Below, piece by piece: positions 5,570-20,404 of a stretch of 64,000 bases of DNA. A model generated the notes under the pieces. That model saw only the letters and a program-made list of their open reading frames with translations. It made no database searches and was not told where the DNA came from. Position numbers and translations under genes: made by a program. The stretch is from Enterococcus phage 9183: the sequence record MT939241.1, one strand, 5' to 3'. How positions within the stretch are numbered: position 1 is the stretch's first letter; the number at the start of each line of letters is the position of its first letter.

Positions 5570-5580
5570 TCGTTTTTATT

Positions 5581-5610
5581 AAGGTACTCAATTGAGTACC
5601 TTATTTTTTT
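5581..5610 (+). terminator. intrinsic terminator
   Basis: Hairpin aaggtactcaattgagtacctt followed by a T8 run. Confidence 0.7.
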
Positions 5611-5643: not shown

Positions 5644-5672
5644 TTTACAATGTCGACTTAGCTTGATATAAT
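5644..5672 (+). promoter_or_regulatory. promoter TTTACA-N17-TGATATAAT
   Basis: Extended -10 TGnTATAAT with a 17-nt spacer to tttaca. RBS AAGGAGG follows. Confidence 0.6.
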
Positions 5673-5702: not shown

Positions 5703-6221
5703 ATGAGTATTAATATTGTTTTAGATGGTCCTAAAGCATGTGGAAAAAGCACAATTGCGAATATGATCATTAATGAATTAGGAAATTGGAAATATATTCA
5801 TTCGGATTCACAAACGAAAAATGATTTAGAATATCATTTAGATCTTTTAAATCAAGGTGAAAATACGGTATTAGATCGTTTTTCATTCGGTGAGGTAATT
5901 TATTCGAAAGTATATGATCGTAAATGTAAACTTACGCCTAGTGAATTTTTGAAGACAGTGACTAGAGAAAATACGATTTACGTCGTTCTTTACTCAAGCT
6001 CAATGATTCTTTTAGAAGAAAGAATAGTAAGGCGTGGAAGAAAAACTGAAGACGAAGAATTAAGTCTCGTTTCGTCTAGCAACAGTTTATTCATTAGGTG
6101 TGCTACTTGGATGCAAGATCAACCTTACTCAGTAAGAAAAAGATACTTAACTTTTGACGTAGCAAAATACACCGCTGAAGAAATCTTTGAAAAGATAAAA
6201 GAAAAAATGGAGGAATTTTAA
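5703..6221 (+). CDS. deoxynucleoside monophosphate kinase (P-loop NMP kinase)
   Basis: Walker A motif GPKACGKST. 172 aa. Sits in the nucleotide-metabolism cluster. Confidence 0.55.
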   Translation: MSINIVLDGPKACGKSTIANMIINELGNWKYIHSDSQTKNDLEYHLDLLNQGENTVLDRFSFGEVIYSKVYDRKCKLTPSEFLKTVTRENTIYVVLYSSSMILLEERIVRRGRKTEDEELSLVSSSNSLFIRCATWMQDQPYSVRKRYLTFDVAKYTAEEIFEKIKEKMEEF

Positions 6222-7055
6222 ATGCAATCATTTGATAATTTAAATGCAGCTTGGGCATGGTTCGCAACAAAAGCTTTAACAGGAAAAAGAGTTGCGGGCA
6301 CAACCGAATTAAATAATGTATCTTTCACGCTTGAAAATATTAATGAAAATTTACTTACAATTCGTGAAAACTTTTCATTATCATATTATTTAGGAGAAGG
6401 AATTTGGTATGGAGCAGGCTCAAATTCTATGGAGTTCATTTCAAGATTTGGAAAAATTTGGGAAAAATTAAGTGATGATGGTGTTACAAATGAAAGTGCC
6501 TATGGATATATTCTAAAGAAAAAATATGGCTTTGATCAAATTGAAAAAATGGTTGAACTTTTAAGTAAAGATCCAAACAGTCGTCGCGCAGTGATGAACA
6601 TTAATTTCGCTCGTAAAAATGTAATTGAAACGAATGATGAACAATGCACTATTGCTTTGCAGCTTTTGCTTCGTGATGGTGAGTTAAATATGACAGGAAT
6701 TATGCGTTCAAATGATTTATGGACGGGAACACCGTATGATATTTTCTACTTCACGGAAATTCAAAAATATATCGCTAATCGTTTAGGTGTTCAATATGGA
6801 ACTTATACTCATTTCGTTACTTCATTGCATATTTATGATCGTGATAAAACGAAAGTAAGTAAATCGATTTTGAATTACTTAAATGATGAAAAAGTTGATG
6901 TTACTATTGATGGTCAACTTTTATTAGAAAGCGCACCTGACTTATATAAGATAATAGGTAAGATTATAGATCCTAAAGAAGCCAAGAAAAAAGCAATTGA
7001 ATTAGCAAAAATAAGAAATATCGTTGGAGGTAAAGACATTGAAAATCAAAATTAA
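6222..7055 (+). CDS. thymidylate-synthase-family pyrimidine C5 hydroxymethylase/methylase, likely dCMP-specific
   Basis: ThyA core aligns well by eye: DPNSRRAV, catalytic Cys in EQCTIALQLLL, MRSNDLWTGTPYDIFYF against E. coli QRSCDVFLGLPFNIASY, and HIYDRD against HLYSNH. The Asn177-equivalent is Asp (PYD versus PFN). Confidence 0.6.
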   Translation: MQSFDNLNAAWAWFATKALTGKRVAGTTELNNVSFTLENINENLLTIRENFSLSYYLGEGIWYGAGSNSMEFISRFGKIWEKLSDDGVTNESAYGYILKKKYGFDQIEKMVELLSKDPNSRRAVMNINFARKNVIETNDEQCTIALQLLLRDGELNMTGIMRSNDLWTGTPYDIFYFTEIQKYIANRLGVQYGTYTHFVTSLHIYDRDKTKVSKSILNYLNDEKVDVTIDGQLLLESAPDLYKIIGKIIDPKEAKKKAIELAKIRNIVGGKDIENQN

Positions 7056-7455
7056 AATGTTTGAGGATGATCCATTATTTAAACCAAAAAGAGCACATTA
7101 CAATGATGCAGGAGCTGATGTTCGATCAACTGTAGATGCTGTTATCTTACCAGGTCAAACTGTAAAAATTCCATTAGGATTTGGATTGGAATTACCCGAT
7201 GGTTACATGGGTGTAATGATGAGTCGATCAGGCCTCGCCTCTAAAGGTCTTGTTTCACAAAATGCTCCTGTTGACTCAGGTTATAAAGGTCAAGTACACG
7301 CTATCTTGACAAATACGACAAATTTATCTATTACAATCGATCGCTTTACTCGTGTTGCACAATTAGTGATCGTTCCAATTATGGTGGCAGATTTCGTTGA
7401 AGAATTTGGAAATGAAAGAACTTCCGACGGTTTTGGAAGCACAGGTATTAAATAA
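7037..7455 (+). CDS. dUTPase-family dNTP pyrophosphatase (trimeric dUTPase fold; dUTP and/or dCTP specific)
   Basis: Motifs AGADV, VDSGYKGQV and the C-terminal RTSDGFGSTG. TTG start at 7037 after GGAGGT is preferred over the track ATG at 7024. Confidence 0.7.
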
Positions 7456-7799
7456 TGATACTTGTCTTTGATTTAGATGGAACGATTTGTGAGGAGAAAC
7501 CGAAAGGTACTCCTTACGCCGCTTATGCGGACGTTCAACCAAAAAGAAAAATGATTGAAAAGATTAAAGAATATCATGATGCAGGTCATAAAATCATTAT
7601 TTATACTGCTCGTCATATGGTTTCTACCAATGGTGATTTAAAAATGATTGAGGAACGTGTTGGTAAAATCACTCGCAATTGGTTAGAAAAAAATAATGTT
7701 CCTTATGATGAATTAATTTTTGGTAAACCATATGGGGATATGTACATTGATGATAAAGCAATGCAGCTTGATCAATTCTTATTGGAGGAAATGCTATGA
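7455..7799 (+). CDS. small HAD-superfamily phosphatase (capless)
   Basis: DLDGTI (motif I), YTAR (motif II), GDMYIDDK (motif IV). 114 aa. Confidence 0.5.
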   Translation: MILVFDLDGTICEEKPKGTPYAAYADVQPKRKMIEKIKEYHDAGHKIIIYTARHMVSTNGDLKMIEERVGKITRNWLEKNNVPYDELIFGKPYGDMYIDDKAMQLDQFLLEEML

Positions 7800-9430
7800 T
7801 TAATAATATCGCTCTTATTCCTGCAGCAGGTAGAGGAACGCGGATGAAATCAGTCACGGATAAATATCCAAAGGCAATGATTCCACATTTAGGAAAACCA
7901 ATTATAGGCCACCAAATTGAATATTTGATAAAAGAAGGCTTTGATAAGGTAGTTATCGTTGTAGGTTATCAGAAAGACATTCTAATGCAATACGTGATTA
8001 AAAATTATGCGGATAAAATTCGTATTTTATTCGCAAATCAAGACGAATTAGATGGACTTGCGACAGCGATTCTTGAAGGAATCAACGCCTTAAACGAAAA
8101 AGACTTATTATTATCAAATCTCACAATTATTCTAGGAGACATTTTACCTCAAGAAGAAATGCCTTATTTTAATGGAGAAAGTTTCATTTGCTATAAAGAG
8201 GTTGATGACTGGCAACGTTGGTGCATGGTTAAAGAACTTTATTCAGGTCGTTTATGTTTTTATGATAAACCAATTGATAAGCCAAACACCAATAAAGCTT
8301 TAATGGGAATTTACATGTTTAATGATATCGATCTATTAAAAGAAAGCATCGAACATATCAAAGAAAAAAATATTCGAATCAATGGGGAATTTCAATTAAG
8401 CTCTGCAATGAATATCTATAATGAACATGTTAACATTAATTTGAAAAAATATGAAAAATTCATTGACTTCGGTCAAGCTGAAGACATTAGTGCCGCAAGA
8501 AAAAATGCTGCTCGTTACTTCAATGATATTTTAATTGAAGATGAGGTAGTAACAAAAAGAAGCACTGATAAAAGTAAAATGTACGACGAATCAATGTGGT
8601 ACCAATTAGCCAAAAATTACTTAGGTGATTATTTACCTGAATGTTATGGCATGACAAAAGAAAATGATGGATATAAAATGAGTCGCATTAAGCTGCCTTC
8701 TCTCCAAGAACAATTCGTCTTTGGAACATTAAGTAGAGTAGAAGCTTACCAATTGATGATTGACTTAATGAATTATTTCAAAGACACGAAAAAATACGGG
8801 ACTAAGCGCCCAAATTTGATTAAAGCAAATCAAGATATGTTTATTAATAAGACAAGAGAACGTATTGAAAAAATCAAAAATATGTTCGATGAAAAATATT
8901 ATGTAATTAATGGAGAAATTAAAGAAAATCCAATTTTTATATTTGAAGAAAAAATCGTTCCTCGTTTAGAGGAAATTATTGCCGATGATAATTATGCCGC
9001 AATGATTCACGGTGATTTATTCTTTGGAAATATGATGTACGATCCAAAAGGAGAAGATGGGCAACGTTTGAAAATCATTGATCCTCGTGGCAAATATGGA
9101 GAAGATAATCGTCTTATGGGTGATATGCGATATGATTATGCTAAATTAAATCATTCAATTTCAGGATATTATGATTTCATTATTAATGGGCTTTATTATT
9201 TGGAAGATAATGGAACTGTGATCAATTATAACTTTTACGATAGTGAAAAGCAGGTAGAAGTACAAGGTTTATTTGAAGATTTACTTTCATTGTCTCATAT
9301 GAAAAAGAAAGATATTGATATGATCACGGGTATCTTGTTCCTATCGATGATTCCGCTTCACAAAGAGAATAAAAATAATCAAATCATTCAATTTGCACAA
9401 GCAATTAAATTTTTAGAATTAGGAGCATGA
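7796..9430 (+). CDS. bifunctional protein: N-terminal sugar/phospho-alcohol nucleotidyltransferase fused to C-terminal APH/choline-kinase-like kinase
   Basis: N-terminus IPAAGRGTRM...KAMIP...GKPII matches the NTP-transferase signature. The C-terminus has the Brenner motif HGDLFFGNMMYD followed by IIDPRGKYGED. 544 aa. Confidence 0.55.
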   Translation: MINNIALIPAAGRGTRMKSVTDKYPKAMIPHLGKPIIGHQIEYLIKEGFDKVVIVVGYQKDILMQYVIKNYADKIRILFANQDELDGLATAILEGINALNEKDLLLSNLTIILGDILPQEEMPYFNGESFICYKEVDDWQRWCMVKELYSGRLCFYDKPIDKPNTNKALMGIYMFNDIDLLKESIEHIKEKNIRINGEFQLSSAMNIYNEHVNINLKKYEKFIDFGQAEDISAARKNAARYFNDILIEDEVVTKRSTDKSKMYDESMWYQLAKNYLGDYLPECYGMTKENDGYKMSRIKLPSLQEQFVFGTLSRVEAYQLMIDLMNYFKDTKKYGTKRPNLIKANQDMFINKTRERIEKIKNMFDEKYYVINGEIKENPIFIFEEKIVPRLEEIIADDNYAAMIHGDLFFGNMMYDPKGEDGQRLKIIDPRGKYGEDNRLMGDMRYDYAKLNHSISGYYDFIINGLYYLEDNGTVINYNFYDSEKQVEVQGLFEDLLSLSHMKKKDIDMITGILFLSMIPLHKENKNNQIIQFAQAIKFLELGA

Positions 9431-9434
9431 TAAA

Positions 9435-10655
9435 ATGGGTAAAACAATCGTTTTTGGAAAATTAGGAAGAACTATACGATTCAACCGCAAGAATTGGAAA
9501 TCAGGTGCTGGCAATAATGAGCCGGCAACATTGCTTTCAGCTTTAGCTAATGCAAATCCTCAAAATAAATATATTATCATTGGTAGAAGTGATTTCTCTC
9601 GTTGTGATGAAGAAACGATAAACTATTGGTTTAAATATGATAATGTTGAAGATGCTTGGGCAGACTATGACAAGAAAAAACATGATCTTTATAATTTCCT
9701 TTATGAAAAATATAAAGATACTCATATTGATTATGGGATTATCAATGGAGGTATCACAGGTAACACAAACTCTCCAGGCTGCTTTATTAAATATGATAAA
9801 GATGGAAATTCAACTGGAGAAAAATTACGTGTGTTAGATGCTATGGCTATTTACGTTGGCCCAATCATTTGCTTATTTAACAAACGAAAAATAAAATGGG
9901 TAAACTTCCATGCAGATGCTCGTCAGTTTCCTATTAAAGGTAAAGATGTTTTCCAACAGCCTGAACTTACAATTGGGACAAGAAATATTGATCGAGTGAA
10001 AATGACATATAAAGATTATGATGATCAAACTGATATTCCTAGAGAAATGAGTATGAGATATGGAATGACTGAAGCTCTCCTTTTACTTGACCCTGAATAT
10101 AAAGATTTTCCTAAAGTTGAAAAAGATATTAAAGTAGGATTCTTCTTCCATAATTATGAAAAAATCAAAAATCGTACTCATGAATTACTTAATTATATTG
10201 ATCAGTTTGGAGAAGATGAAATTTCAGTTTATGGCAAATGGAAAGGTTTTGAGGATCAACCTAAATTTAAAGGTGAATGTACCTTTGATGAGATGCAAGA
10301 AATTTTACCTCGGATCAAATATACACTTTGCTATCCTATCGTTAAAGGTGATATTAGTGCAAAATGGATTGAAGCTGTAAGAGCTGGTATTATTCCTTTC
10401 TTCGATGAAAAATATGATGAAAATCGTTTGCTCGTTGATATTCACAACGTTCCTTCATTCTTATATGTATCTTCACCTGAAGATATGAAAGAAAAAATTA
10501 ACCTGCTTGAAAAAGATCCTCACATTTACAAATCTATTCTTGATTTATTGACTGATCGTTTAGAATATCTTAAAGAAAATGTTCTTTCAATTTATGAATG
10601 TGAAATTGAGGATGCCATTGAAGGCGGCGTTGAAAGATACGATAAAATTTATTAA
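9435..10655 (+). CDS. hypothetical protein, possible GT-B-type (alpha-glucosyltransferase-like) transferase
   Basis: 406-aa ORF in the modification cluster. Only weak by-eye resemblance to GT-B DNA glucosyltransferases (KWKGF segment), so the function is uncertain. Confidence 0.3.
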   Translation: MGKTIVFGKLGRTIRFNRKNWKSGAGNNEPATLLSALANANPQNKYIIIGRSDFSRCDEETINYWFKYDNVEDAWADYDKKKHDLYNFLYEKYKDTHIDYGIINGGITGNTNSPGCFIKYDKDGNSTGEKLRVLDAMAIYVGPIICLFNKRKIKWVNFHADARQFPIKGKDVFQQPELTIGTRNIDRVKMTYKDYDDQTDIPREMSMRYGMTEALLLLDPEYKDFPKVEKDIKVGFFFHNYEKIKNRTHELLNYIDQFGEDEISVYGKWKGFEDQPKFKGECTFDEMQEILPRIKYTLCYPIVKGDISAKWIEAVRAGIIPFFDEKYDENRLLVDIHNVPSFLYVSSPEDMKEKINLLEKDPHIYKSILDLLTDRLEYLKENVLSIYECEIEDAIEGGVERYDKIY

Positions 10656-10679
10656 AAATAAAAATCACGGGCGAATAAG

Positions 10680-10708
10680 TTTACTATTTGCCCGTGTAAT
10701 GATATAAT
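10680..10708 (+). promoter_or_regulatory. promoter TTTACT-N17-TGATATAAT; -35 inside hairpin 10666-10696
   Basis: Extended -10. The hairpin cacgggc...gcccgtg overlaps the -35. Confidence 0.5.
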
Positions 10709-10741
10709 ATAAAAGTAAAAATTATAAAGGATGGTATTTAT

Positions 10742-11266
10742 ATGAGTACGACTTTTAAAGTTAAAAAACACGAAGATAATATCATTCACCTTTATTCTGA
10801 TGGAGGCTGTCGTTCAACGGCAAAGAAAGGTGAAAAAATTAAAGACACCGATAAATGTGCTTACGCTTTCTTCTTAAAACAAGGAGGACACGAAAAACTT
10901 GATGGATTTGCTTCTTATGGAAAGACAAATAATAATCAAGAAATAATGGGATTGCTCATGGGGCTAAGAGCAATTAAACGTCCTGAGTTTCCAGTTATTG
11001 CTTATCTTGATAGCGCTTACGTTGTTAACTGTCTTCAAGCAGGTTGGTGGCGTAAGTGGGAGCAAAATGGGTGGACGAAGAAAGGTGGCCTTGCAAATGC
11101 TGAAGAATGGAAAGCATTAATTAAAGAACTTAAAAGATTTCCATTTTTCTCCATTGAAAAGGTGAAAGGTCATTCAGGTAATGCTGATTATAATGATCTA
11201 GTCGACAAGCATTTAAACAAATTAATGGATGAACTTGAGGAGAAAGGTAAAGGTAATGTATTATGA
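10742..11266 (+). CDS. ribonuclease H (RNase HI-like)
   Basis: YSDGGCRS...DK.AYAF ... EIMGLLMGLRA matches RNase H catalytic architecture. 174 aa. Confidence 0.65.
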   Translation: MSTTFKVKKHEDNIIHLYSDGGCRSTAKKGEKIKDTDKCAYAFFLKQGGHEKLDGFASYGKTNNNQEIMGLLMGLRAIKRPEFPVIAYLDSAYVVNCLQAGWWRKWEQNGWTKKGGLANAEEWKALIKELKRFPFFSIEKVKGHSGNADYNDLVDKHLNKLMDELEEKGKGNVL

Positions 11267-12234
11267 TTTATTTTGGTAAAACTCGTATTAACCTATTTTC
11301 ATATGACGCGTCAGCAAAGCCAAGATTAGATACTGAAGAAATATTAAAAGGAATGGGTTTCACACCTTTAATTGTGTCAGCTTTTGAAGAGGTAAAAGAT
11401 GTAAAATTACGCGTCGAACAAGAACTGGCAAACATAAAAGAAAATGATATCATAATCGTTCAATATCCTTCTTTTAGTTGGAGAGAATACGAAATAGCTT
11501 TTAATGAACAAGCACATAAACAAGGAGCTAAAGTGTTTGCTATCGTTCACGATCTGGAGACATTAAGATGGCCTGGTGATACGTCAGACTTTGAAGTATT
11601 AAATACTTTTGATGCTATTTCATTGCCTTCATATAAAGCTGCAAGCTTTTTAATGAAGAAAGGTTTGAAAACGCCTTTTTACTTCCAGTTCTTTTGGGAT
11701 TATTTATGTGAAAACAATGGGCAAATGTTAGACTTGAATGCCGATATTGTGTATGCAGGAAATATCATTGAACGTAAAACAGAATTTCTTAATGATGTAA
11801 AATTTCCAATACGCCTTTATGGTGATAATATCGAAAATAGAACATTTAGGGAAAATATCACATATGAAGGTAGACGAACGAATGAGGAATTAGTTTTGGA
11901 AATAGGAGGAAATATTGGCTTATCATGGGATAGTAATAATTATTTAGAATATGCAAAATATAATCTTTCATATAAGCCTGCTATGTATTTAGCCGCAAAC
12001 TGTCCTATTATCGTTCATAATAAAACGAACATAGCAAGAATAGTTGAAGCTTATAATTTAGGTAAAGTTATAGGTGATTTAAAATATGATACAGTTTTAA
12101 AAGCTGTCGTTGATATTAAGAAAGAACGTGAAAGATATGCAGAAGCAACTCTTGCATTTGGACAAAATTTAAGAGATGGAAGATGTTTGAAAAATTTAAT
12201 AGAAAGGATGTTGACTTCACAAGATGCATATTGA
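11263..12234 (+). CDS. GT-B fold glycosyltransferase, T4 beta-glucosyltransferase (Bgt)-like
   Basis: By-eye similarity to the T4 Bgt C-domain: ADIVYAGNIIERKTEFLNDVKFPIRLYGDN against LDVIYGGSFRSGQRESKMVEFLFDTGLNIEFFGN. The N-domain has a comparable layout. Confidence 0.45.
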   Translation: MIYFGKTRINLFSYDASAKPRLDTEEILKGMGFTPLIVSAFEEVKDVKLRVEQELANIKENDIIIVQYPSFSWREYEIAFNEQAHKQGAKVFAIVHDLETLRWPGDTSDFEVLNTFDAISLPSYKAASFLMKKGLKTPFYFQFFWDYLCENNGQMLDLNADIVYAGNIIERKTEFLNDVKFPIRLYGDNIENRTFRENITYEGRRTNEELVLEIGGNIGLSWDSNNYLEYAKYNLSYKPAMYLAANCPIIVHNKTNIARIVEAYNLGKVIGDLKYDTVLKAVVDIKKERERYAEATLAFGQNLRDGRCLKNLIERMLTSQDAY

Positions 12235-12478
12235 AATGTATATTTTTGATCAATGTTTCGTCGATCATGCAAATTATTTAGAGACAAGAGTTGGAGAAGG
12301 TTATAAGGTTTATCAATTCCAACAGTCAGGTGGAAATCCTCCATTTAGTCCTATTTATTCTATTAAATTTAGAAAGTTGCTTAAATATAAATGGTACAAT
12401 AATTTTCATGGTTGGTTATTTAAATATAGGAGAAAACGTTTTGTTGAAAAAGAATTAGGGAGGAAATACGTTGGCTAA
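12224..12478 (+). CDS. hypothetical small basic protein
   Basis: 84-aa ORF filling the gap before tdk. No convincing RBS. Confidence 0.3.
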   Translation: MHIEMYIFDQCFVDHANYLETRVGEGYKVYQFQQSGGNPPFSPIYSIKFRKLLKYKWYNNFHGWLFKYRRKRFVEKELGRKYVG

Positions 12479-13079
12479 ATTAATCTTCTTTTATGGGGCA
12501 ATGAAAAGTGGTAAAAGCATGGAAATTGCTAAGACATATACGAACTACAAAATTAAAGGACAAGATCCAATGGTTTTTAAACCTTCGATCGACACTCGTG
12601 ATAAAAACATTAAGTCAAGATTAGGTATTGAAATTCCTTGTGAAGTTATAAAACCTGATGAAGATTTAAATAGGAAAATTTTTATTGATCGATTTTCACA
12701 AAAATTGCCTCCTGTCGTTTTAATTGACGAGGCGCAATTTTTAAGTGACAAACAGGTTCGTGAATTGGGAGTAATTGTTGATGTAGGCAATATTGACATA
12801 ATTTGCTTTGGTTTAAAAAATGATTTTAAAGGCAAACTATTTGAAGGATCAAAGGCATTAATTGAGGAAGCTGATAAGTTAGTTGAAGTTAAGACATTAT
12901 GTGCTTTTTGTAACCGTAAAGCAACTCATAATCTTTTAACTGAAATTCATGATGATGGAAAAAGATATGCAGTTGACACTTCAGTTGAAGGAAACTTAAG
13001 GATCGGCGACGAAGATTTCTTTCAGTGTTGCCGAAAACATTATTATCAATATTCAACACGCACGCGTGAAATTAAATAG
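12471..13079 (+). CDS. tdk: thymidine kinase
   Basis: FFYGAMKSGKS P-loop and a C-terminal zinc ribbon (CAFCNRKATHN ... FQCCRKH). TTG start after GGGAGG. Confidence 0.85.
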   Translation: MAKLIFFYGAMKSGKSMEIAKTYTNYKIKGQDPMVFKPSIDTRDKNIKSRLGIEIPCEVIKPDEDLNRKIFIDRFSQKLPPVVLIDEAQFLSDKQVRELGVIVDVGNIDIICFGLKNDFKGKLFEGSKALIEEADKLVEVKTLCAFCNRKATHNLLTEIHDDGKRYAVDTSVEGNLRIGDEDFFQCCRKHYYQYSTRTREIK

Positions 13080-13090
13080 GATTTTTAATG

Positions 13091-13118
13091 AAGGTTCGTT
13101 TACATAGCGAACCTTTTT
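13091..13118 (+). terminator. intrinsic terminator overlapping next promoter -35
   Basis: Hairpin aaggttcgtttacatagcgaacctt followed by a T6 run. The loop contains tttaca. Confidence 0.65.
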
Positions 13119-13158: not shown

Positions 13159-16100
13159 ATGAGTTGGTTTAGTATTCATAATCATAGTTATTATTCAAAC
13201 TTTCGTCTTCGTGATGCGACGAATGCACCTGAAGATATCATTGATAAAGCGATAGAGTTAGGCTTAACAGGTATCGTTTTGTCTGATCATGAAACTATAG
13301 CGGGAGCACCAAAATTTCTTGATTATGCAAAGAAATTAGAGAAAGAAAATAAATTGCCTGAAGGTTTTAAAGTAGGTGTTGGTAATGAAGCTTACTTAAT
13401 TGATCGAAAATATGAACAAGCAATGATTGATCAAGAAAAAGTTAAGTATTATCATTTTATCATGCTTGCAAAAAATCAAAGAGGATTTGAGTTTTTGAAA
13501 AAGCAAACAGCTTTAGCTTGGTCACACCGCATTTATTCAAGAGGTATGGAACGTGTACCAACATATAAGCAAGATTTGGTTGAATTAATGAAAGAATATA
13601 AAGGTGACGTTGTTGCTTCAACAGCTTGTATAGGAGGAGAACTACCTCAACTTATTCTTAAATTGGAGGAAGCTACTTTAAATGGAAACGACAACGAAGT
13701 TAAAGAAATCAAACAAGAAATTCACAACTTTATTCATTTTTTGGTTAACACTTTCGGTCATGAAAATGTATTCTTTGAGTTACAACCTTCGTACCAAGAA
13801 GAACAAAAAATCGTAAATAAATGGTTGCCAACGATTGCTGAAGCTTATAAGATTAAATGCATTGTGACAACTGATGCTCATTATCTTACTTTAGCACAAC
13901 AAGAATTTCATAAACAATATCTTCAAGCGTCAGAAGGAGAGCGTGAAGTTGAACAATTTTATGCAACTACTTACATTTTTTCTTATGATGAATTACTTGA
14001 ATATTTTGATCAGGAATTGCTTGATGTTTTAGTTGAAAATACAAATATCATTAAAGATATGATAGAGGAAATTAATTATAAACATGAAACCGTTATTCCA
14101 AACAGTCATATTCCTTCGTTTAAACCTAATATGGAAATTATGAAAAAAATCGACGAAGAAAAATATCCAAACATTTATAAGATGATGAACTCAAAAGTTT
14201 TGGAAGATCGTTATTATCATCACAGGGTTATGCAAGGTTTCATTGATAAGAAACAAGAATTTAATGATGAAAATCTTTCAAGAATTGATTTGGAATATAG
14301 TGAACTTGAAGAAATCAGTGAACAGCTTGGACAACCAATGACGTCATATTTCTTAGCCATGACAGAGTTCGTTGATATTATGTGGGAGCATTCGCTTGTT
14401 GGAGTAGGTCGTGGATCAGCTGTATGTTATTACACGAATTACTTATTGGATATCGTTCAATTAAACCCAATTAAATATGATTTACCATATTGGCGATTCT
14501 TATCACGTGAATATGTTGGAGAGTTTCCTGATATTGACGTTGATGCACAAGGATCACAACGAGCTTCAATCATTGAAGGCGTTAAAGAAAGATTTGGTCA
14601 TGAAAATGTATTAAACATTGGAACATACACAACTGAAGGAGCACGAGCTGCATCGCTTACTGCTTGTCGCGCGTTAGGACTTGATCCTGACACAGCACAA
14701 AACATTACAAATATGATTCCATCGGATAAAGGTAATCCATGGCCATTACATGATGCATTCTTTGGTAATGAAGAAGAAAATCGTAAACCTGATAAAGCAT
14801 TCATTAATGAAGTAAATAATTATGAAGGTTTACAAGAATTGATGCTTCAATCACAAGGATTAGTATCAGGTCGAGGACAACACGCAAGTGGAGTTGTTGT
14901 CTTTCCAAATGGATATACGTCAATGAACACAATGATGAAAACAAGTAATGGTTTACCTATTACACAATGGGATGCAGGTACTACTGAAGCTGCAGGCGGT
15001 ATTAAGTATGATTTCTTATCAATTAATGCTCTTGATCGAATTAAAAGTGCGATGGATATGTTATTGAAAGATGGAAAAATTGAATGGCAAGGATCATTAA
15101 GAGATACATTTAATAAATATTTCCATCCTGACGTACTTGAAATGGATGCAGATAAAATGTATGATATGTTATTCGATGGTGAAATCATTTCAGCATTTCA
15201 GTTTGAAGCAAAAACGGGTCGTCAAGCATTAGAAAAAATTAATGCACGAAACTTTAATCAATTAGTCGCAGCAAATTCATTGATGCGCTTATCATGCGAA
15301 GGTGAACAGCCAATTGATAAATTCATTCGTTATAAAAATGATTTAAGTAATTGGGATAAAGACATGGATGAATATGGTTTGACTGAAGATGAAAAGAAAG
15401 TGATGCATGAATTGCTTGATGCAAGATATGGGGTTTGTGAAACACAGGAAGCAATTATGCAAATTGCAATGCATGAAAAAGTAGCAAAATATAATTTAAG
15501 AGAAGCAAAGGGGTTACGTAAAGCATCAGCTAAGAAGAAACCTGAAATTCAAGAAAAACAAAAGAAACTGTTCTTTGAAAAAGGAACAGCGAATGGTACG
15601 TCAACAAACTTACTAAATTATATTTGGAATGAATGTTACGTTCCAACTTTTGGTTATTCTTTTAGTGCGCCTCACGTTGCAGCTTACACAATGATCTTGA
15701 TGATTGAAATGAACATTGCTTATCGTTATGGAGTTCATTATTGGAAGGCAGCTTGCTTAAATGTTGATGCAGGTATTTTAGATGGTGAAGTAGAAGGCGG
15801 AACAAGATATGGTAAAATTGCTAAAGCTTTATCAGGTTTTCGTGAAGATGTTGTTCCTCCGTCAGTCAATAAAAGTGATATTGGGTTTACACCCGATTCA
15901 AAAACGGGTAAAATTATGTATGGTTTAAAGCCAATCGTCGGTATGAATGGAAAACTCGCAAGACAAATCATTGAAAATCGACCTTATTCGAACATTAAAG
16001 ATTTCATTGAAAAGAATCTTGAAAATGGTGATTTGACAAAAGGTAAAATGGTTAACTTAATTAAGAGTGGAATTTTTGATGAACTTTACGCAAATCGTAG

Positions 16101-17013
16101 AGAATTAATGATTAAGTTTGTTGAATACGTTGAACCTCTTAAAGAAAAATTGACGACCGCGGTTATTCCAAAAATAATTGATCGCGTGCCTGAAACTTAT
16201 AAAGAAGGCGTAACTGCTTACATGTTTCTTAAGGAAGTAAAAGGTAAGAAAAATCATACACAATATTCGGATCATTTCTTTGATAATTATGAAAAATTAT
16301 GTAAAGAAAAAGTAACGAAAAAATATCCAAATTCATATTATTATGATGATAATGGTGAATTAGTAATTGAAGTAAAAGTACTTGAAAAAGTAGTAAAAGA
16401 TAAGATGGAACCAATTAAAGAATGGCTTAAGACTGAAGAGGCTTTACGTGCTGAAGCTGCATTAAGACGAACAGCGTTTTGGAATAAGTATTGTCAAGGA
16501 ACGATTTCTCATTGGGAAATGGAATCAATTACGTTCTACATTTCAAATCACGAACTTAATGAATATCCACTTGATTCATACTTTAACATTGCGTCATTTA
16601 AAGATATGCCAAGAGAACCTGAAATTATTGGTTGGTCAAATGGGAGAGGAAGAAAATGGCCTCAATTAAAAACGGAGGTCATTGCGGGAACCGTCATTGA
16701 TACTTTACCTAAGAAGGGTATCGTCACAATTATTACACAAACTGGAGTCGTCGATGTTCGTGTAGGAAAAGGAAAGTATCAACATTATAATAAGAAAATA
16801 ATGGTTGGCGAAGGTAAAGAACGAGTAAACATTGATGATACTTGGTGGAAACGTGGAAATATGATTGTCGTCGTTGGTTATCGTCGTGAAAATGATTTTT
16901 ATGCTAATGCAAGAAATAGTTCATATCAACATTCAGTGATGCTGATCAAAGGTCACGATGGTAAGAAAGTATTCGTTCAACAGGAAAAGAAAAAAATAGG
17001 AGAAGATTATTAA
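13159..17013 (+). CDS. DNA polymerase III alpha subunit (DnaE-type, N-terminal PHP domain)
   Basis: 1284 aa. PHP motif HNHSYYS at the N-terminus. Length and layout are typical of a polymerase alpha catalytic subunit. Confidence 0.8.
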   Translation: MSWFSIHNHSYYSNFRLRDATNAPEDIIDKAIELGLTGIVLSDHETIAGAPKFLDYAKKLEKENKLPEGFKVGVGNEAYLIDRKYEQAMIDQEKVKYYHFIMLAKNQRGFEFLKKQTALAWSHRIYSRGMERVPTYKQDLVELMKEYKGDVVASTACIGGELPQLILKLEEATLNGNDNEVKEIKQEIHNFIHFLVNTFGHENVFFELQPSYQEEQKIVNKWLPTIAEAYKIKCIVTTDAHYLTLAQQEFHKQYLQASEGEREVEQFYATTYIFSYDELLEYFDQELLDVLVENTNIIKDMIEEINYKHETVIPNSHIPSFKPNMEIMKKIDEEKYPNIYKMMNSKVLEDRYYHHRVMQGFIDKKQEFNDENLSRIDLEYSELEEISEQLGQPMTSYFLAMTEFVDIMWEHSLVGVGRGSAVCYYTNYLLDIVQLNPIKYDLPYWRFLSREYVGEFPDIDVDAQGSQRASIIEGVKERFGHENVLNIGTYTTEGARAASLTACRALGLDPDTAQNITNMIPSDKGNPWPLHDAFFGNEEENRKPDKAFINEVNNYEGLQELMLQSQGLVSGRGQHASGVVVFPNGYTSMNTMMKTSNGLPITQWDAGTTEAAGGIKYDFLSINALDRIKSAMDMLLKDGKIEWQGSLRDTFNKYFHPDVLEMDADKMYDMLFDGEIISAFQFEAKTGRQALEKINARNFNQLVAANSLMRLSCEGEQPIDKFIRYKNDLSNWDKDMDEYGLTEDEKKVMHELLDARYGVCETQEAIMQIAMHEKVAKYNLREAKGLRKASAKKKPEIQEKQKKLFFEKGTANGTSTNLLNYIWNECYVPTFGYSFSAPHVAAYTMILMIEMNIAYRYGVHYWKAACLNVDAGILDGEVEGGTRYGKIAKALSGFREDVVPPSVNKSDIGFTPDSKTGKIMYGLKPIVGMNGKLARQIIENRPYSNIKDFIEKNLENGDLTKGKMVNLIKSGIFDELYANRRELMIKFVEYVEPLKEKLTTAVIPKIIDRVPETYKEGVTAYMFLKEVKGKKNHTQYSDHFFDNYEKLCKEKVTKKYPNSYYYDDNGELVIEVKVLEKVVKDKMEPIKEWLKTEEALRAEAALRRTAFWNKYCQGTISHWEMESITFYISNHELNEYPLDSYFNIASFKDMPREPEIIGWSNGRGRKWPQLKTEVIAGTVIDTLPKKGIVTIITQTGVVDVRVGKGKYQHYNKKIMVGEGKERVNIDDTWWKRGNMIVVVGYRRENDFYANARNSSYQHSVMLIKGHDGKKVFVQQEKKKIGEDY

Positions 17014-19439: not shown

Positions 19440-19661
19440 TTGATGAATTTTAGTCAAGCTTTTGATACCGTCAGTCAACGAGAAGGAACGTTTATGCGTT
19501 TGCCTCAATGGAAAGAGGACGTAAAAATTCGTGCTCAATTTCCTGATGAATACAGTAAAATGAGTCATCCTTACCTATATGTGGAATCGCGTTTTGGTAA
19601 TGTACCTTGGATTCCAACACAGGTTGAAATGTTTTCAAATAAATGGGAGGTAGGAATTTAA
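19440..19661 (+). CDS. hypothetical protein
   Basis: 73-aa ORF. Confidence 0.5.
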   Translation: MMNFSQAFDTVSQREGTFMRLPQWKEDVKIRAQFPDEYSKMSHPYLYVESRFGNVPWIPTQVEMFSNKWEVGI

Positions 19662-20404
19662 TGAGAAAATTTGAAGTAGTAAGTGCCTATAAGGACAAAG
19701 AAATTAATTTGCCAATGCGAGCAACTCCTCATTCAGCAGGTTATGATTTTGAGGCTGCAGAAGATATTGAAATCCCTTCATTCTTCGTGGGTGTTCGTCA
19801 GTTGATGACATATATTGAGGATAGAATCGATCAATCAAATAATCATCCAATGGATGAACGAACATACGAAAGGTTGATGAGATATGAAGAAGAAACTGAT
19901 GAAATATCTAGACACCTATCTGAATATGAACAGCTTCCTGTTGCATATGTTAAAGAGCTTTTATCGTTAATCGATGATATTCTCGACGATGATGAAACTT
20001 CATGCTTAGAAGCTGTTGAAGATTTCCGTAAAAAATTAAAACCTACGTTAGTTCCTACAGGAATTAAAGCTTGCATGCATAAAGATGAATTTTTAGGATT
20101 ATACAATCGTTCTTCAAATCCATTAAAACGAATGCTCGTATTGGCAAATGGCGTTGGAGTTATTGATAGTGACTATTACGATAATGAAGACAACGAAGGC
20201 CATATCATGTTCCAATTTATTAATCTAGGATTCCTTCCTGTAAAGATTAAGAAAGGCGAACGAATTGGGCAAGGTATCTTCCAAAAATTCTTAACAGTTG
20301 AGACAGTTGAAGAAACGCGTGAAGATACAAGAAGCGGTGGTTTTGGTTCAACAGGTGTTGACGACACTATTCCTGGAGAAATGTTTGAAAAAGAGGTGCT
20401 TTAA
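19661..20404 (+). CDS. dUTPase-family dNTP pyrophosphatase with a roughly 100-aa insertion between motifs 1 and 3
   Basis: Motifs SAGYDF, VIDSDYYDNEDNEGHI, RIGQGI and RSGGFGSTG. ATG at 19661 after GGGAGG is preferred over the track start at 19643. Confidence 0.6.
   Translation: MRKFEVVSAYKDKEINLPMRATPHSAGYDFEAAEDIEIPSFFVGVRQLMTYIEDRIDQSNNHPMDERTYERLMRYEEETDEISRHLSEYEQLPVAYVKELLSLIDDILDDDETSCLEAVEDFRKKLKPTLVPTGIKACMHKDEFLGLYNRSSNPLKRMLVLANGVGVIDSDYYDNEDNEGHIMFQFINLGFLPVKIKKGERIGQGIFQKFLTVETVEETREDTRSGGFGSTGVDDTIPGEMFEKEVL

Follow-up and report, generated by a model that had tools for sequence, protein, structure and literature searches.

A predicted sugar-activation module, a kinase/nucleotidylyltransferase fusion with a HAD phosphatase partner, among putative cytosine-modification genes of Enterococcus phage 9183

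Results

Gene organisation of the locus

The DNA analysed here (the window) is a 64,000-nucleotide stretch of Enterococcus phage 9183, record MT939241.1. Its features of interest are collected in Table 1. The central gene is one unbroken ORF with an ATG start and a GGAGG ribosome-binding site 8 nt upstream. Its start overlaps the stop codon of a small HAD phosphatase gene by 4 nt (ATGA at 7796-7799), and the two genes are translationally coupled. On the other side, the start of a gene for a GT-B glycosyltransferase (GT1) closely follows the end of the fusion. In public annotation the fusion is mislabelled “Glycosyltransferase” and the HAD protein “Polynucleotide kinase”. Pfam and NCBIfam searches confirmed the neighbourhood that an earlier, sequence-only reading had described, with a thymidylate-synthase (ThyA) homologue on the 5′ side, the HAD phosphatase directly 5′ and glycosyltransferases 3′. 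Genes for RNase H and thymidine kinase are part of the same apparent operon, and Pol III alpha lies downstream. Because the next strong terminator-like site is found only at 13090-13116, the segment from 5703 to 13079 is probably a single transcription unit.

Table 1. Features of the fusion locus (positions in the window).
Feature	Coordinates	Strand	Size, residues or supporting evidence
Terminator-like hairpin	5580-5603		just before the promoter-like site; consensus scan alone
Promoter-like site, TTTACA-17-TATAAT with TG	5644..5672	+	consensus scan alone
P-loop (d)NMP kinase	5703..6221	+	weak P-loop kinase matches; phrog_761 thymidylate kinase, E 1e-13
Thymidylate-synthase homologue, predicted dCMP hydroxymethylase	6222..7055	+	PF00303, E 2e-23; MilA, E 3.5e-28
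dUTPase/dCTP-deaminase-fold protein	7024..7455	+	PF00692, E 8e-21; PF22769, E 1e-8
AfhF-like HAD phosphatase	7455..7799	+	114 aa; TIGR01689, DLP3 gp81 homology, PDB matches
Fusion: sugar(-phosphate) 1-kinase/sugar-1-phosphate nucleotidylyltransferase, bifunctional, AfhE-like	7796..9430	+	544 aa
N-terminal nucleotidylyltransferase domain, residues 1-238	7796..8509	+	G12-R-G-T-R16, K26, Q82, D115, D157-K158-P, D224
C-terminal APH/choline-kinase-fold domain, residues 241-544	8516..9427	+	K254, E265, H405-G-D407-x4-N412, D429-P-R-G
GT1, GT-B glycosyltransferase	9435..10655	+	weak Pfam Glyco_trans_1_2; model pLDDT 91.6; Foldseek
GT2, WbbI-like (beta-1,6-galactofuranosyltransferase family)	11263..12234	+	NCBIfam PRK09814, E 2e-31
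Next strong terminator-like site	13090-13116		consensus scan alone

Two intact catalytic domains in the fusion

A domain HMM scan, the check that the sequence-only reading had named, found the expected nucleotidyltransferase: residues 6-237 match NTP_transferase (PF00483, E=6e-18), and NCBIfam models of sugar-1-phosphate nucleotidylyltransferases match at E 1e-23 to 4e-28, every match falling under the equivalog cut-off. The proposed G-x-G-T-R motif is G-R-G-T-R at residues 12-16 (7829-7843), and is accompanied by the catalytic Lys and the metal-binding Asp residues. On the kinase side Pfam matches are weak (EcKL, E 1e-4; fructosamine-kinase, E 2e-3). The Brenner motif H-G-D-x4-N foreseen there is nevertheless present in the APH/choline-kinase-fold domain as H405-G-D407-L-F-F-G-N412 (9008-9031), with a metal-binding Asp further 3′ in I-D429-P-R-G (9077-9091; D429-P-R-G, 9080-9091), and an alignment of 57 family sequences shows no variation at K254, E265, H405, G406, D407, N412 or D429. 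All catalytic residues are thus present in both domains, and the domain matches are far beyond chance. At E<=1e-30 the family comprises 2,692 clusters, some of which may be nucleotidyltransferase-only proteins; among the best 150 matches listed, nearly all span the full length. Full-length conservation in more than 150 representative clusters rules out a chance ORF or pseudo-fusion.

The nucleotidyltransferase domain is nearest the hexose-1-phosphate enzymes ST0452, RmlA, GalU and AglF, and its sugar lobe is complete. Q82 (codon at 8039-8041) aligns with RmlA Gln83, the residue that recognises U/T, and D157-K158-P corresponds to RmlA E162-K163-P. The kinase domain resembles the pentofuranose 1-kinase MtnK, at a level where HMM comparison detects no sequence similarity. 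Four conserved basic residues of the kinase (R240, K352, R356, K450) would suit a phosphorylated substrate. A PDB sequence search with the fusion matched nucleotidyltransferase-only chains alone, with no AfhE structure for residue-level comparison.

Neighbouring enzymes of the acceptor and donor sides

The ThyA homologue, whose top PDB match is the CMP hydroxymethylase MilA, has W80, C146, D169, G173, D177 and Y209 (E. coli numbering) in common with T4 gp42; in the 5-hydroxycytosine (5hoC) synthases DLP3 gp80 and phiC120 c158 four of these positions read A80, N169, V173 and F209. The T4 gp42 alignment recovers C148 and D179 of that enzyme, and equivalents of both are present here. Activity on dUMP was rejected, as position 177 is Asp, the residue of dCMP-specific enzymes. 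The protein is therefore predicted to make 5-hydroxymethyl-dCMP, the source of the acceptor base. Both acceptor-side marks of a T4-type 5-hydroxymethylcytosine (5hmC) system occur at the locus: the dCMP hydroxymethylase signature (Cys146, Asp177, Asp169) and a DNA-glycosyltransferase-like fold. The latter is that of GT1, the model of which has T4 beta-glucosyltransferase (beta-GT) as its top Foldseek PDB match (E 9e-10) and also matches the HY126 glycosyltransferase 9iqz. GT1 is a predicted NDP-sugar user and a candidate 5hmC-DNA glycosyltransferase. Of the remaining genes, the P-loop kinase likely phosphorylates the modified dCMP, and the dUTPase-fold protein is likely a pool-clearing dCTPase/dUTPase. 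GT2, a 51% identical homologue of which occurs in vB_EfaS_140, a phage without the fusion, possibly adds a second sugar.

The HAD protein matches the EcbF-BcbF capsule phosphatase model TIGR01689 (E 4.6e-21), DLP3 gp81 (35% identity, E 4e-14) and the PDB entries 1xpj (E 2.7e-18) and 9iqw (E 3e-9), the last being from the same deposition series as an entry titled “phage HY126 glycosyltransferase”. It is predicted to strip the distal phosphate from a sugar bisphosphate. The suggestion that this phosphatase takes part in donor synthesis is supported and can be extended: rather than an accessory, it is probably the middle step, turning sugar-1,omega-bisphosphate into sugar-1-phosphate, and consequently the kinase substrate is probably an already phosphorylated sugar.

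Relationship to AfhE and AfhF

The architecture itself is already known. In PMC13326640, AfhE of coliphage HY126, RB69 gp52:53 and DLP3 gp82 are described as kinase/nucleotidyltransferase fusions adjoined by the HAD protein AfhF (assigned homologues: RB69 gp51 and Acinetobacter phage DLP3 gp81), and AfhE and AfhF as converting arabinose-5-phosphate (Ara5P) into UDP-arabinofuranose for arabinosylation of 5hoC. The sources are He et al., Nat Chem Biol 2026 (via PMC13326640) and Lee et al., NAR 2026. The fusion aligns with DLP3 gp82 over residues 6-461 (blastp, E 3e-18), tblastn with the fusion gives matches in 281 phage records, RB69 among them, and the assigned AfhE members DLP3 gp82, phiC120 c163 and RB69 gp52:53 show full-length homology, at only 22-26% identity. 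Family-specific kinase residues are common to the fusion and the AfhE type (R240, F242, N243, W268, K352, R356 and Y446-D-x-A-K450). As in AfhE, an N-terminal nucleotidyltransferase is joined to a C-terminal APH-fold kinase, with a small HAD phosphatase adjoining; as in HY126, RB69 and DLP3, the module sits in a phage gene cluster for cytosine hypermodification (putative in 9183), along with GT-B transferases, a ThyA homologue and a nucleotide kinase of the P-loop type.

The differences are also clear. About 19 sugar-lobe residues kept by the fusion and RmlA are missing from the AfhE-type nucleotidyltransferase domain. K158 of the D-K-P motif is G in AfhE-type proteins, and further clade-specific differences lie at positions 113, 256, 261, 520 and 522. 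The ThyA homologue is of the 5hmC (D169) type here and of the 5hoC (N169) type in the AfhE systems. The AfhE phages are Straboviridae, whereas 9183 is a roughly 86-kb siphophage of a Gram-positive host. In a midpoint-rooted neighbour-joining tree of 136 proteins, a distance tree without support values, all proteins linked to an arabinose-5-phosphate isomerase (API) gene fall in an 11-member clade, and the fusion in a 125-member sister clade of 51 viral and 74 cellular sequences, which spans Gram-positive phages, jumbo phages, CPR bacteria, Clostridia and Thaumarchaeota.

The API partner is absent from the window and from the related phage Planchet, as judged by tblastn with DLP3 API, a four-sequence SIS profile run on all ORFs, and annotation; Pfam identifies no isomerase among the ten small neighbouring ORFs. 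Within 10 kb, API was found at none of 51 viral loci of the fusion subfamily and, as a weak match, at 1 of 80 cellular loci, compared with 6 of the 12 full-length proteins that scored lower, under 250 bits. These six all belong to the 11-member AfhE-type clade (DLP3, phiC120, S-SRM01, MA9V-1, L075 and L092). A literature search for an Enterococcus API returned nothing usable and, to our knowledge, production of Kdo precursors would not be expected in a Gram-positive host. Lacking API linkage, co-occurrence with a 5hoC synthase and grouping in the tree, the fusion is not a simple AfhE orthologue; by sequence it belongs to a much larger sister branch.

Distribution of the module

Enterococcus phage Planchet is about 95% identical to the window, and its copy of the fusion gene is the one annotated “Glycosyltransferase”; the Planchet paper does not discuss DNA modification. 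In the related enterococcal phages nattely and vB_EfaS_140, HAD, fusion and GT1 are replaced by a homologue of T4 beta-GT (41% identity, E 3e-83). Among relatives of the fusion, a HAD gene lies within 1 kb in 49 of 51 viral cases and within 2 kb in 53 of 80 cellular ones. Forty of 50 distinct viral relatives have a ThyA-like gene (always D169/D177) or a Tet_JBP gene within 10 kb, and 39 of the 50 an adjoining GT1-like or TAGT glycosyltransferase; GT1 itself accompanies HAD and fusion in loci L009, L017, L018 and L019, and in 17 of 50 viral loci. These linkage counts, together with the homologous fusions of T4-like phages and the DLP3 homology, speak for the earlier proposal that the enzyme makes an NDP-linked donor for transfer onto DNA. 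The subfamily is also common in bacterial and archaeal glycan loci unconnected with DNA, the cellular relatives lying in LPS/capsule-type loci with WavE, GT2 and Capsule_synth genes; hence the enzyme itself is not DNA-specific. In Synechococcus phage S-SRM01, a SIS-fusion-HAD triad sits inside a large fucosyltransferase cluster. The HAD-fusion module goes unmentioned in Burke 2021 and in the Pyle 2023 preprint, the reports covered here.

Discussion

A proposed three-step route to a nucleotide sugar

We propose, with a probability of roughly 0.7, that the module works in the order kinase, phosphatase, uridylyltransferase and delivers a UDP- or dTDP-sugar with which GT1 glycosylates 5hmC. Starting from a host sugar phosphate, the route would take three steps and two genes. 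With ATP as the phosphate donor, the C-terminal APH-fold kinase would act at the anomeric C1 of a sugar omega-phosphate and so yield the sugar-1,omega-bisphosphate; the HAD enzyme would take off the distal phosphate; and the N-terminal RmlA/GalU-like domain would join the resulting sugar-1-phosphate with UTP (or dTTP), a nucleotide preference suggested by the equivalence of Q82 and RmlA Q83. GT1, the presumed consumer of the donor, would then move the sugar onto 5hmC in phage DNA, the likely acceptor base, supplied by the dCMP-hydroxymethylase-type ThyA homologue, and GT2 may attach a further sugar. The order of steps is modelled on AfhE/AfhF as PMC13326640 summarises them.

The APH fold sets the module apart from heptose activation (HldE/GmhB; HddA/GmhB/HddC), where the kinases are of the ribokinase/PfkB fold (HldE) or of the GHMP type (HddA); the HldE adenylyltransferase has a cytidylyltransferase-type fold, and the domain order differs from that of the fusion. 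AmgK/MurU of MurNAc recycling and NahK are separate proteins that take free sugars without a phosphatase step, and their product is destined for peptidoglycan, not DNA. MtnK is a stand-alone enzyme of methionine salvage, without a nucleotidyltransferase. In T4 as, by prediction, at this locus, a pre-replicative dCMP hydroxymethylase is succeeded by a DNA transferase of the GT-B fold; T4, however, takes host UDP-glucose, whereas 9183 has its own putative donor-synthesis module and a different GT-B enzyme in place of beta-GT.

Alternative readings

Homology makes D-arabinofuranose the expected sugar. AfhE is the sole characterised relative in the literature cited above, and has the same fusion and the same HAD partner; the shared family-specific kinase residues, the TIGR01689 match, the link of 9iqw to the HY126 deposition series and the MtnK-like kinase all agree with a strict orthologue that would turn Ara5P, supplied by the host or made by a phage isomerase that has escaped recognition, into UDP-D-arabinofuranose and leave arabinosyl-5hmC in the DNA. 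We consider this rather unlikely in view of the missing isomerase gene and its near absence from the subfamily, the separate clade, the AfhE-type loss of sugar-lobe residues and of K158, and the pairing with a 5hmC-type synthase. Ribose-5-phosphate or a hexose-6-phosphate is at least as likely, because the subfamily comes without an accompanying API. The same three steps could tentatively be assigned to another universally available sugar phosphate (e.g., ribose-5-phosphate, glucose-6-phosphate, GlcNAc-6-phosphate or mannose-6-phosphate), with a UDP/dTDP-sugar as the product, either one without precedent in DNA modification or one made by bypassing the host mutase and pyrophosphorylase. The systematic lack of the isomerase from Gram-positive phages to Thaumarchaeota, the proximity to hexose-1-phosphate enzymes with a complete sugar lobe, and the clade-specific residues, K158 included, favour such a substrate; but many hosts could still provide Ara5P, and it would be difficult to see why three genes should take the place of a functional beta-GT if they made plain UDP-glucose. 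Fusions with DHBP synthase (P0156, P0241), a possible hint that the substrate derives from ribulose-5-phosphate, were set aside, their nucleotidyltransferase motif being degenerate and their setting a bacterial heptose-type cluster.

The order of steps could be different. Should the HAD enzyme act first, or be unrelated, the kinase would phosphorylate C1 of a free sugar in the manner of NahK, AmgK and MtnK, and the same product would arise with no bisphosphate. The APH-fold anomeric kinases known to us do take non-phosphorylated C1-OH sugars. In Table 1 of PMC13326640 the phosphatase stands before the kinase for DLP3 and RB69, whereas the text of that source on HY126, citing biochemical work, gives Araf5P to Araf1,5P2 to Araf1P, and the four basic kinase residues fit a phospho-substrate; we hold the free-sugar order to be improbable. 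Still less probable is a target other than DNA, the NDP-sugar serving to remodel polysaccharide or teichoic acid of the host wall or to glycosylate virion proteins, as an auxiliary metabolic module merely situated among replication genes. The capsule-type loci of the cellular relatives and the S-SRM01 triad would fit such a role. Against it, the module is flanked, in one apparent operon, by the dCMP hydroxymethylase/dUTPase genes on one side and a BGT-like transferase on the other, takes the place of the T4-like beta-GT of relatives, and is linked to hydroxymethylpyrimidine-forming enzymes in most viral relatives. The sequence-only reading had left the substrate as a sugar or an amino-alcohol. 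The sugar stands; CDP-linked activation of choline, ethanolamine or another amino-alcohol in the LicA/LicC manner is not favoured, since Q82 and D157-K158-P of the RmlA type are kept. Sugar-1-phosphate nucleotidylyltransferases score equally well or better, the obligatory HAD partner would have no role in a choline pathway, and the genes found alongside the module encode glycosyltransferases rather than phosphocholine transferases, so that this reading appears very improbable.

Implications

Returning to the three-step route, our provisional view, held with less than even confidence, is that fusion and HAD form a family, sister to AfhE/AfhF, which activates a different sugar from the Ru5P-derived arabinose or else provides arabinofuranose for 5hmC and not for 5hoC. 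The analysis separates the AfhE/AfhF arabinose pathway, characterised in T4-like phages in 2025-26, from a much larger sister family, paired with a HAD phosphatase and not with an isomerase, whose substrate lends itself to direct assay with two small recombinant proteins. If the proposal is correct, an Enterococcus phage infecting vancomycin-resistant strains would carry a cytosine hypermodification not yet described, and the two-gene module would constitute a general route to nucleotide sugars that has gone unrecognised, serving phages with hydroxymethylpyrimidine pathways of both the ThyA type and the TET/JBP-TAGT type and recurring in hundreds of bacterial and archaeal glycan loci. DNA hypermodifications decide whether phages survive restriction, type IV and CRISPR defences. 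Planchet-like phages, which are under development against vancomycin-resistant Enterococcus faecium (PMC11210271), probably carry a non-glucose glycosyl-5hmC; the modification and its genes bear on host-range prediction, sequencing and engineering of these phages.

The nucleotidyltransferase-kinase fusion and its probable operon

The fusion gene has a clean reading frame and a GGAGG ribosome-binding site. At ATGA (7796-7799) it starts within the stop codon of the HAD phosphatase gene before it, and 4 nt separate its own stop codon from the ATG of the next gene. Promoter-like and terminator-like sites, located by consensus scan only, suggest that the segment 5703-13079 may be a single transcription unit. 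The GC content of the phage segment is about 31-37%.

Predicted genes and signals around the fusion gene
Feature	Coordinates	Strand	Remarks
Terminator-like hairpin	5580-5603		consensus scan only
Promoter-like site	5644-5672		consensus scan only
P-loop nucleotide kinase	5703-6221		
Thymidylate-synthase (ThyA) homologue	6222-7055		
dUTPase/dCTP-deaminase-fold protein	7024-7455		
HAD phosphatase	7455-7799		114 aa
Nucleotidyltransferase-kinase fusion	7796-9430	+	544 codons
GT1	9435-10655		406 aa; weak GT-B match
RNase H	10742-11266		
GT2, WbbI-like glycosyltransferase	11263-12234		
Thymidine kinase	12471-13079		
Terminator-like hairpin	13090-13116		consensus scan only
Pol III alpha	13159-17013		

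A second, longer dUTPase-fold protein (253 aa) is encoded at 19643-20404, ~12 kb downstream of the one at 7024-7455; the presence of two such genes suggests distinct roles, in clearing the dUTP and the dCTP pools.

Across 15 kb the window shares about 95% identity with Enterococcus phage Planchet (OX422066), an 86.5 kb virulent siphophage (Denvervirus, Andrewesvirinae) isolated on vancomycin-resistant E. faecium. Its record labels the fusion (L001 9001-10632) "Glycosyltransferase" and the HAD protein (8660-9004) "Polynucleotide kinase" (PLANC_62, PLANC_63). Both labels are misleading. Planchet also codes for a nucleoside deoxyribosyltransferase, an NMN transporter, another nucleoside kinase and an additional glycosyltransferase of 388 aa (PLANC_101; L010 77238-78404, beyond or bordering window coverage) with weak similarity to the GT1 C-terminus (30% across 104 aa).

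The sequence-only reading had described a G-x-G-T-R nucleotidyltransferase joined to an H-G-D-x4-N kinase, set between a hydroxymethylase-type gene and glycosyltransferase genes with a HAD gene directly upstream. This description is right on every point. Residues 6-237 match Pfam NTP_transferase (E 6e-18), and the N-terminal half matches NCBIfam sugar-1-phosphate nucleotidylyltransferases (archaeal GlmU-type, 4e-28; AglF, 2e-23; long RmlA, 2e-23; also GalU, HddC and MurU), every match lying far under the equivalog cut-off. The C-terminal half, with weak kinase matches in Pfam (EcKL, 1e-4; fructosamine kinase, 2e-3), contains the motifs H405-G-D-L-F-F-G-N412 and I-D429-P-R-G. Alignment of 57 full-length relatives showed G12, R16, K26, D115 and D224 of the nucleotidyltransferase, and K254, E265, H405, G406, D407, N412 and D429 of the kinase, to be invariant or near-invariant. 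The AlphaFold model built from this alignment is confident (pLDDT 90.7, pTM 0.80), the linker at ~231-240 having low confidence; N-domain matches dominate its Foldseek comparison with the PDB (ST0452, RmlA, GalU; E about 1e-14). These data establish the domain identities and the conserved residues.

Relationship to AfhE/AfhF

Distant homologues of the fusion are present in 281 phage records (tblastn; about 25% identity, mostly over at least 85% of the length), mainly from T-even-like phages of Escherichia, Acinetobacter, Klebsiella, Serratia and Proteus. In RB69 and DLP3, arabinosylated 5-hydroxycytosine (5hoC) takes the place of cytosine, and the proteins RB69 gp52:53 and DLP3 gp82 have been classed as fused nucleotidyltransferase-kinases, analogues of AfhE from coliphage HY126 (Lee et al., NAR 2026, PMC13326640). 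In the AfhE pathway, as PMC13326640 summarises it from He et al. (Nat Chem Biol 2026), a phage arabinose-5-phosphate isomerase (API) supplies Araf5P, the AfhE kinase converts it to Araf-1,5-bisphosphate, AfhF, a HAD phosphatase, takes off the 5-phosphate, and the AfhE N-domain yields UDP-arabinofuranose.

The window fusion matches DLP3 gp82 (E 3e-18, 25.7% identity, residues 6-461) and the window HAD matches gp81 (35% identity, E 4e-14). The top PDB sequence matches of this HAD are 1xpj (E 2.7e-18), which Lee et al. also give for gp81 and gp51 (PMC13326640), and 9iqw (E 3e-9), from the same PDB series as 9iqz, entitled "phage HY126 glycosyltransferase". Moreover, the window protein and the AfhE-type proteins have in common many kinase-domain residues, R240, F242, N243, W268, P281, K352, R356, G442 and Y446-D-x-A-K450, which are family-specific, over and above the generic catalytic set. 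Homology and shared residues therefore place the window protein in the broad AfhE family, and AfhE-like chemistry would be the natural expectation. As AfhE/AfhF are already known (2025-26), the kind of system is not categorically new.

The window system differs from AfhE in belonging to another clade, in having no isomerase, in having a 5hmC-type rather than a 5hoC-type partner and in residing in a siphophage of a Gram-positive host. Tblastn, profile search and annotation found no SIS-type (API) gene in the window or in the whole of Planchet. Searching 1.84 billion representatives with a profile gave 2,692 clusters at E<=1e-30, a figure that may count nucleotidyltransferase-only proteins; the best 150 of the 2,692 are nearly all full-length, all with E<1e-100. 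We surveyed gene context at 80 IMG/VR loci, 80 bacterial/archaeal genome loci and several GenBank phages, scoring all ORFs against small profiles for API, HAD, ThyA and GT1. Viral proteins were split into 51 distinct full-length sequences scoring at least 250 bits with the window-family profile and 12 lower-scoring ones (including DLP3, phiC120, S-SRM01 and MA9V-1). API was found within 10 kb at none of the 51 loci of the former group, and HAD within 1 kb at 49; the corresponding figures for the latter group are 6/12 and 6/12. Cellular loci gave one API within 10 kb, a weak match (1/80), and HAD within 2 kb at 53/80. In a midpoint-rooted neighbour-joining tree of 136 proteins (a distance tree without support values), all six API-linked proteins fall in one clade of 11 members (AfhE-type), and the window protein in the opposite, window-type clade of 51 viral and 74 cellular sequences. 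Residue 113 is L in the window type and W in the AfhE type, residue 158 K and G, respectively, and positions 256, 261, 520 and 522 also differ; the AfhE-type N-domain is without ~19 sugar-binding-lobe residues that the window protein and RmlA have. The window fusion is thus a divergent variant of the AfhE/AfhF kind.

In Synechococcus phage S-SRM01, an AfhE-type SIS-fusion-HAD triad (L014 6402-8814) lies within a large group of fucosyltransferase, GDP-fucose synthesis and GT2 genes, suggesting that this cyanophage uses an arabinose-type module for a non-DNA glycan.

Probable association with hydroxymethylpyrimidine DNA

The window ThyA homologue has C146, D177, D169, W80, G173 and Y209, as does T4 gp42, the dCMP hydroxymethylase; D177 is the cytosine-specific residue. 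DLP3 gp80 and phiC120 c158 differ in carrying the published 5hoC-synthase signature N169, plus A80, V173 and F209. The homologue was aligned with E. coli ThyA and with T4 gp42, the latter sequence coming from its record; recovery of the known gp42 residues C148 and D179 validates the alignment. D169/D177 are present in 18/18 ThyA homologues adjoining window-type fusions.

At the position of HAD, fusion and GT1, the related enterococcal phages nattely and vB_EfaS_140 have one gene with 41% identity to T4 beta-glucosyltransferase (E 3e-83; window 7455-10655 versus vB_EfaS_140, L004, 4025-5083). Flanking genes are 76-77% identical in nucleotide sequence to those of the window, with the ThyA homologue, dUTPase, RNase H, GT2 and thymidine kinase conserved. 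A beta-glucosyltransferase homologue at the same site in relatives argues that this lineage almost certainly makes 5hmC DNA and that, in the window phage, a cassette using host UDP-glucose has been swapped for one that makes its own donor.

The confidently predicted GT1 structure (pLDDT 91.6) has a GT-B fold; its top PDB match is T4 BGT (E 9e-10), the HY126 DNA glycosyltransferase also being among the matches. GT1 accompanies HAD and fusion in other phages: L009, L017, L018 and L019, and 17/50 viral loci. GT2 is uncoupled from them, being missing in L009 and present in vB_EfaS_140; this conservation (51% identity) makes GT2 independent of the fusion module. Its match to the beta-1,6-galactofuranosyltransferase family (WbbI, PRK09814; E 2e-31) hints at a furanose donor.

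Of the 50 distinct window-type viral loci, 18 have a 5hmC-type ThyA homologue, 22 a Tet_JBP dioxygenase, 22 a TET-associated glycosyltransferase (TAGT) and 11 a C5 DNA methyltransferase, the TET plus TAGT loci including Stenotrophomonas phage DLP_6. Tet_JBP/TAGT loci, some with the methyltransferase, are post-replicative hydroxymethylpyrimidine clusters. The phage module therefore recurs in pre- and post-replicative routes of hydroxymethylpyrimidine glycosylation. This observed gene linkage, the cassette swap and the AfhE/AfhF homology support the role in donor synthesis for DNA modification that had been proposed from the sequence. Neither Burke 2021 nor the Pyle 2023 preprint mentions the HAD-fusion module.

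HAD and fusion adjoin Tet_JBP and TAGT (PF20691) in DLP_6 (L003 6613-8641), where the HAD ORF, which precedes gp29, carries no annotation, and in 22 IMG/VR loci (e.g. L041-L056, L062-L064). HAD-fusion-GT1 has no ThyA homologue within 10 kb in two phage contigs, each about 95-100 kb long (L017 8159-9607; L019 8137-9588); preceding it instead is a conserved ~482-aa protein, with no Pfam match, that is possibly a different base-modifying enzyme. Probable jumbo phages L005 (558-kb contig) and L007 (476-kb contig) carry HAD, DUF1653 and fusion near genes for a 5hmC-type ThyA homologue, dCMP deaminase and a nucleoside deoxyribosyltransferase-like protein; a gene of the T4 alpha-glucosyltransferase family (PF11440) is present in L005 as well, and a second, stand-alone nucleotidyltransferase in L007.

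Proposed pathway

The pathway below is inferred as to the sequence of its reactions, the nucleotide used, the acceptor and, above all, the sugar. The fusion C-domain would use ATP to phosphorylate the anomeric hydroxyl of a sugar omega-phosphate, K254 and E265 serving in nucleotide binding, D407 as base and N412 and D429 for Mg. HAD would then remove the distal phosphate, the N-domain (R16, K26, D115, D224) would join the sugar-1-phosphate to UTP or dTTP, and GT1 would move the sugar onto 5hmC in DNA, with possible extension by GT2. Fusion Q82 aligns with RmlA Q83, and D157-K158-P with RmlA E162-K163-P (the RmlA sequence is consistent with variant residue numbers in PDB titles); judging from these alignments, the enzyme would prefer UTP/dTTP and bind phosphate through D157-K158-P.

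A pentofuranose-5-phosphate fits as kinase substrate, the kinase structurally resembling methylthioribose kinase, a C1 kinase acting on 5-substituted ribofuranose. A hexose would suit the more RmlA/GalU-like N-domain just as well.

Other architectures and cellular relatives

The system is unfused in L077 and L079-L089 (IMG/VR, around 9600-12100), where an ORF encodes the kinase alone (about 310-330 aa) and, at several of the loci, separate nucleotidyltransferase and HAD genes come next; in L079 and L080 one long ORF matches both of the latter profiles. In a Nitrosopumilus MAG (L113 4494-5567), HAD and a second nucleotidyltransferase-like domain form one protein, encoded beside the kinase-nucleotidyltransferase fusion. 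Representative clusters P0156 and P0241 (locus L012 2048-4414) join an N-terminal 3,4-dihydroxy-2-butanone-4-phosphate synthase domain (E about 1e-73), an enzyme whose substrate is ribulose-5-P, to the nucleotidyltransferase-kinase, the nucleotidyltransferase motif of P0156 being degenerate (R16S, K26H); the setting is a bacterial cluster of heptose-type glycan genes that includes SIS_2, GHMP kinase, HAD, nucleotidyltransferase and transaldolase.

The window subfamily is found in Clostridia, Gastranaerophilales, CPR bacteria, Muribaculaceae and others, as well as in Gaetbulibacter jejuensis, Rubritalea profundi and Nitrosopumilus-type archaea. Such a spread also points to a starting metabolite that is widely available. 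Cellular fusion genes usually adjoin HAD, and genes of the WavE family or GT2 are often next to them; Rubritalea has a GDP-mannose-dehydratase-like and a Capsule_synth gene as neighbours. We conclude from this occurrence and these contexts that fusion plus HAD is a general route to nucleotide sugars, one recruited by phages.
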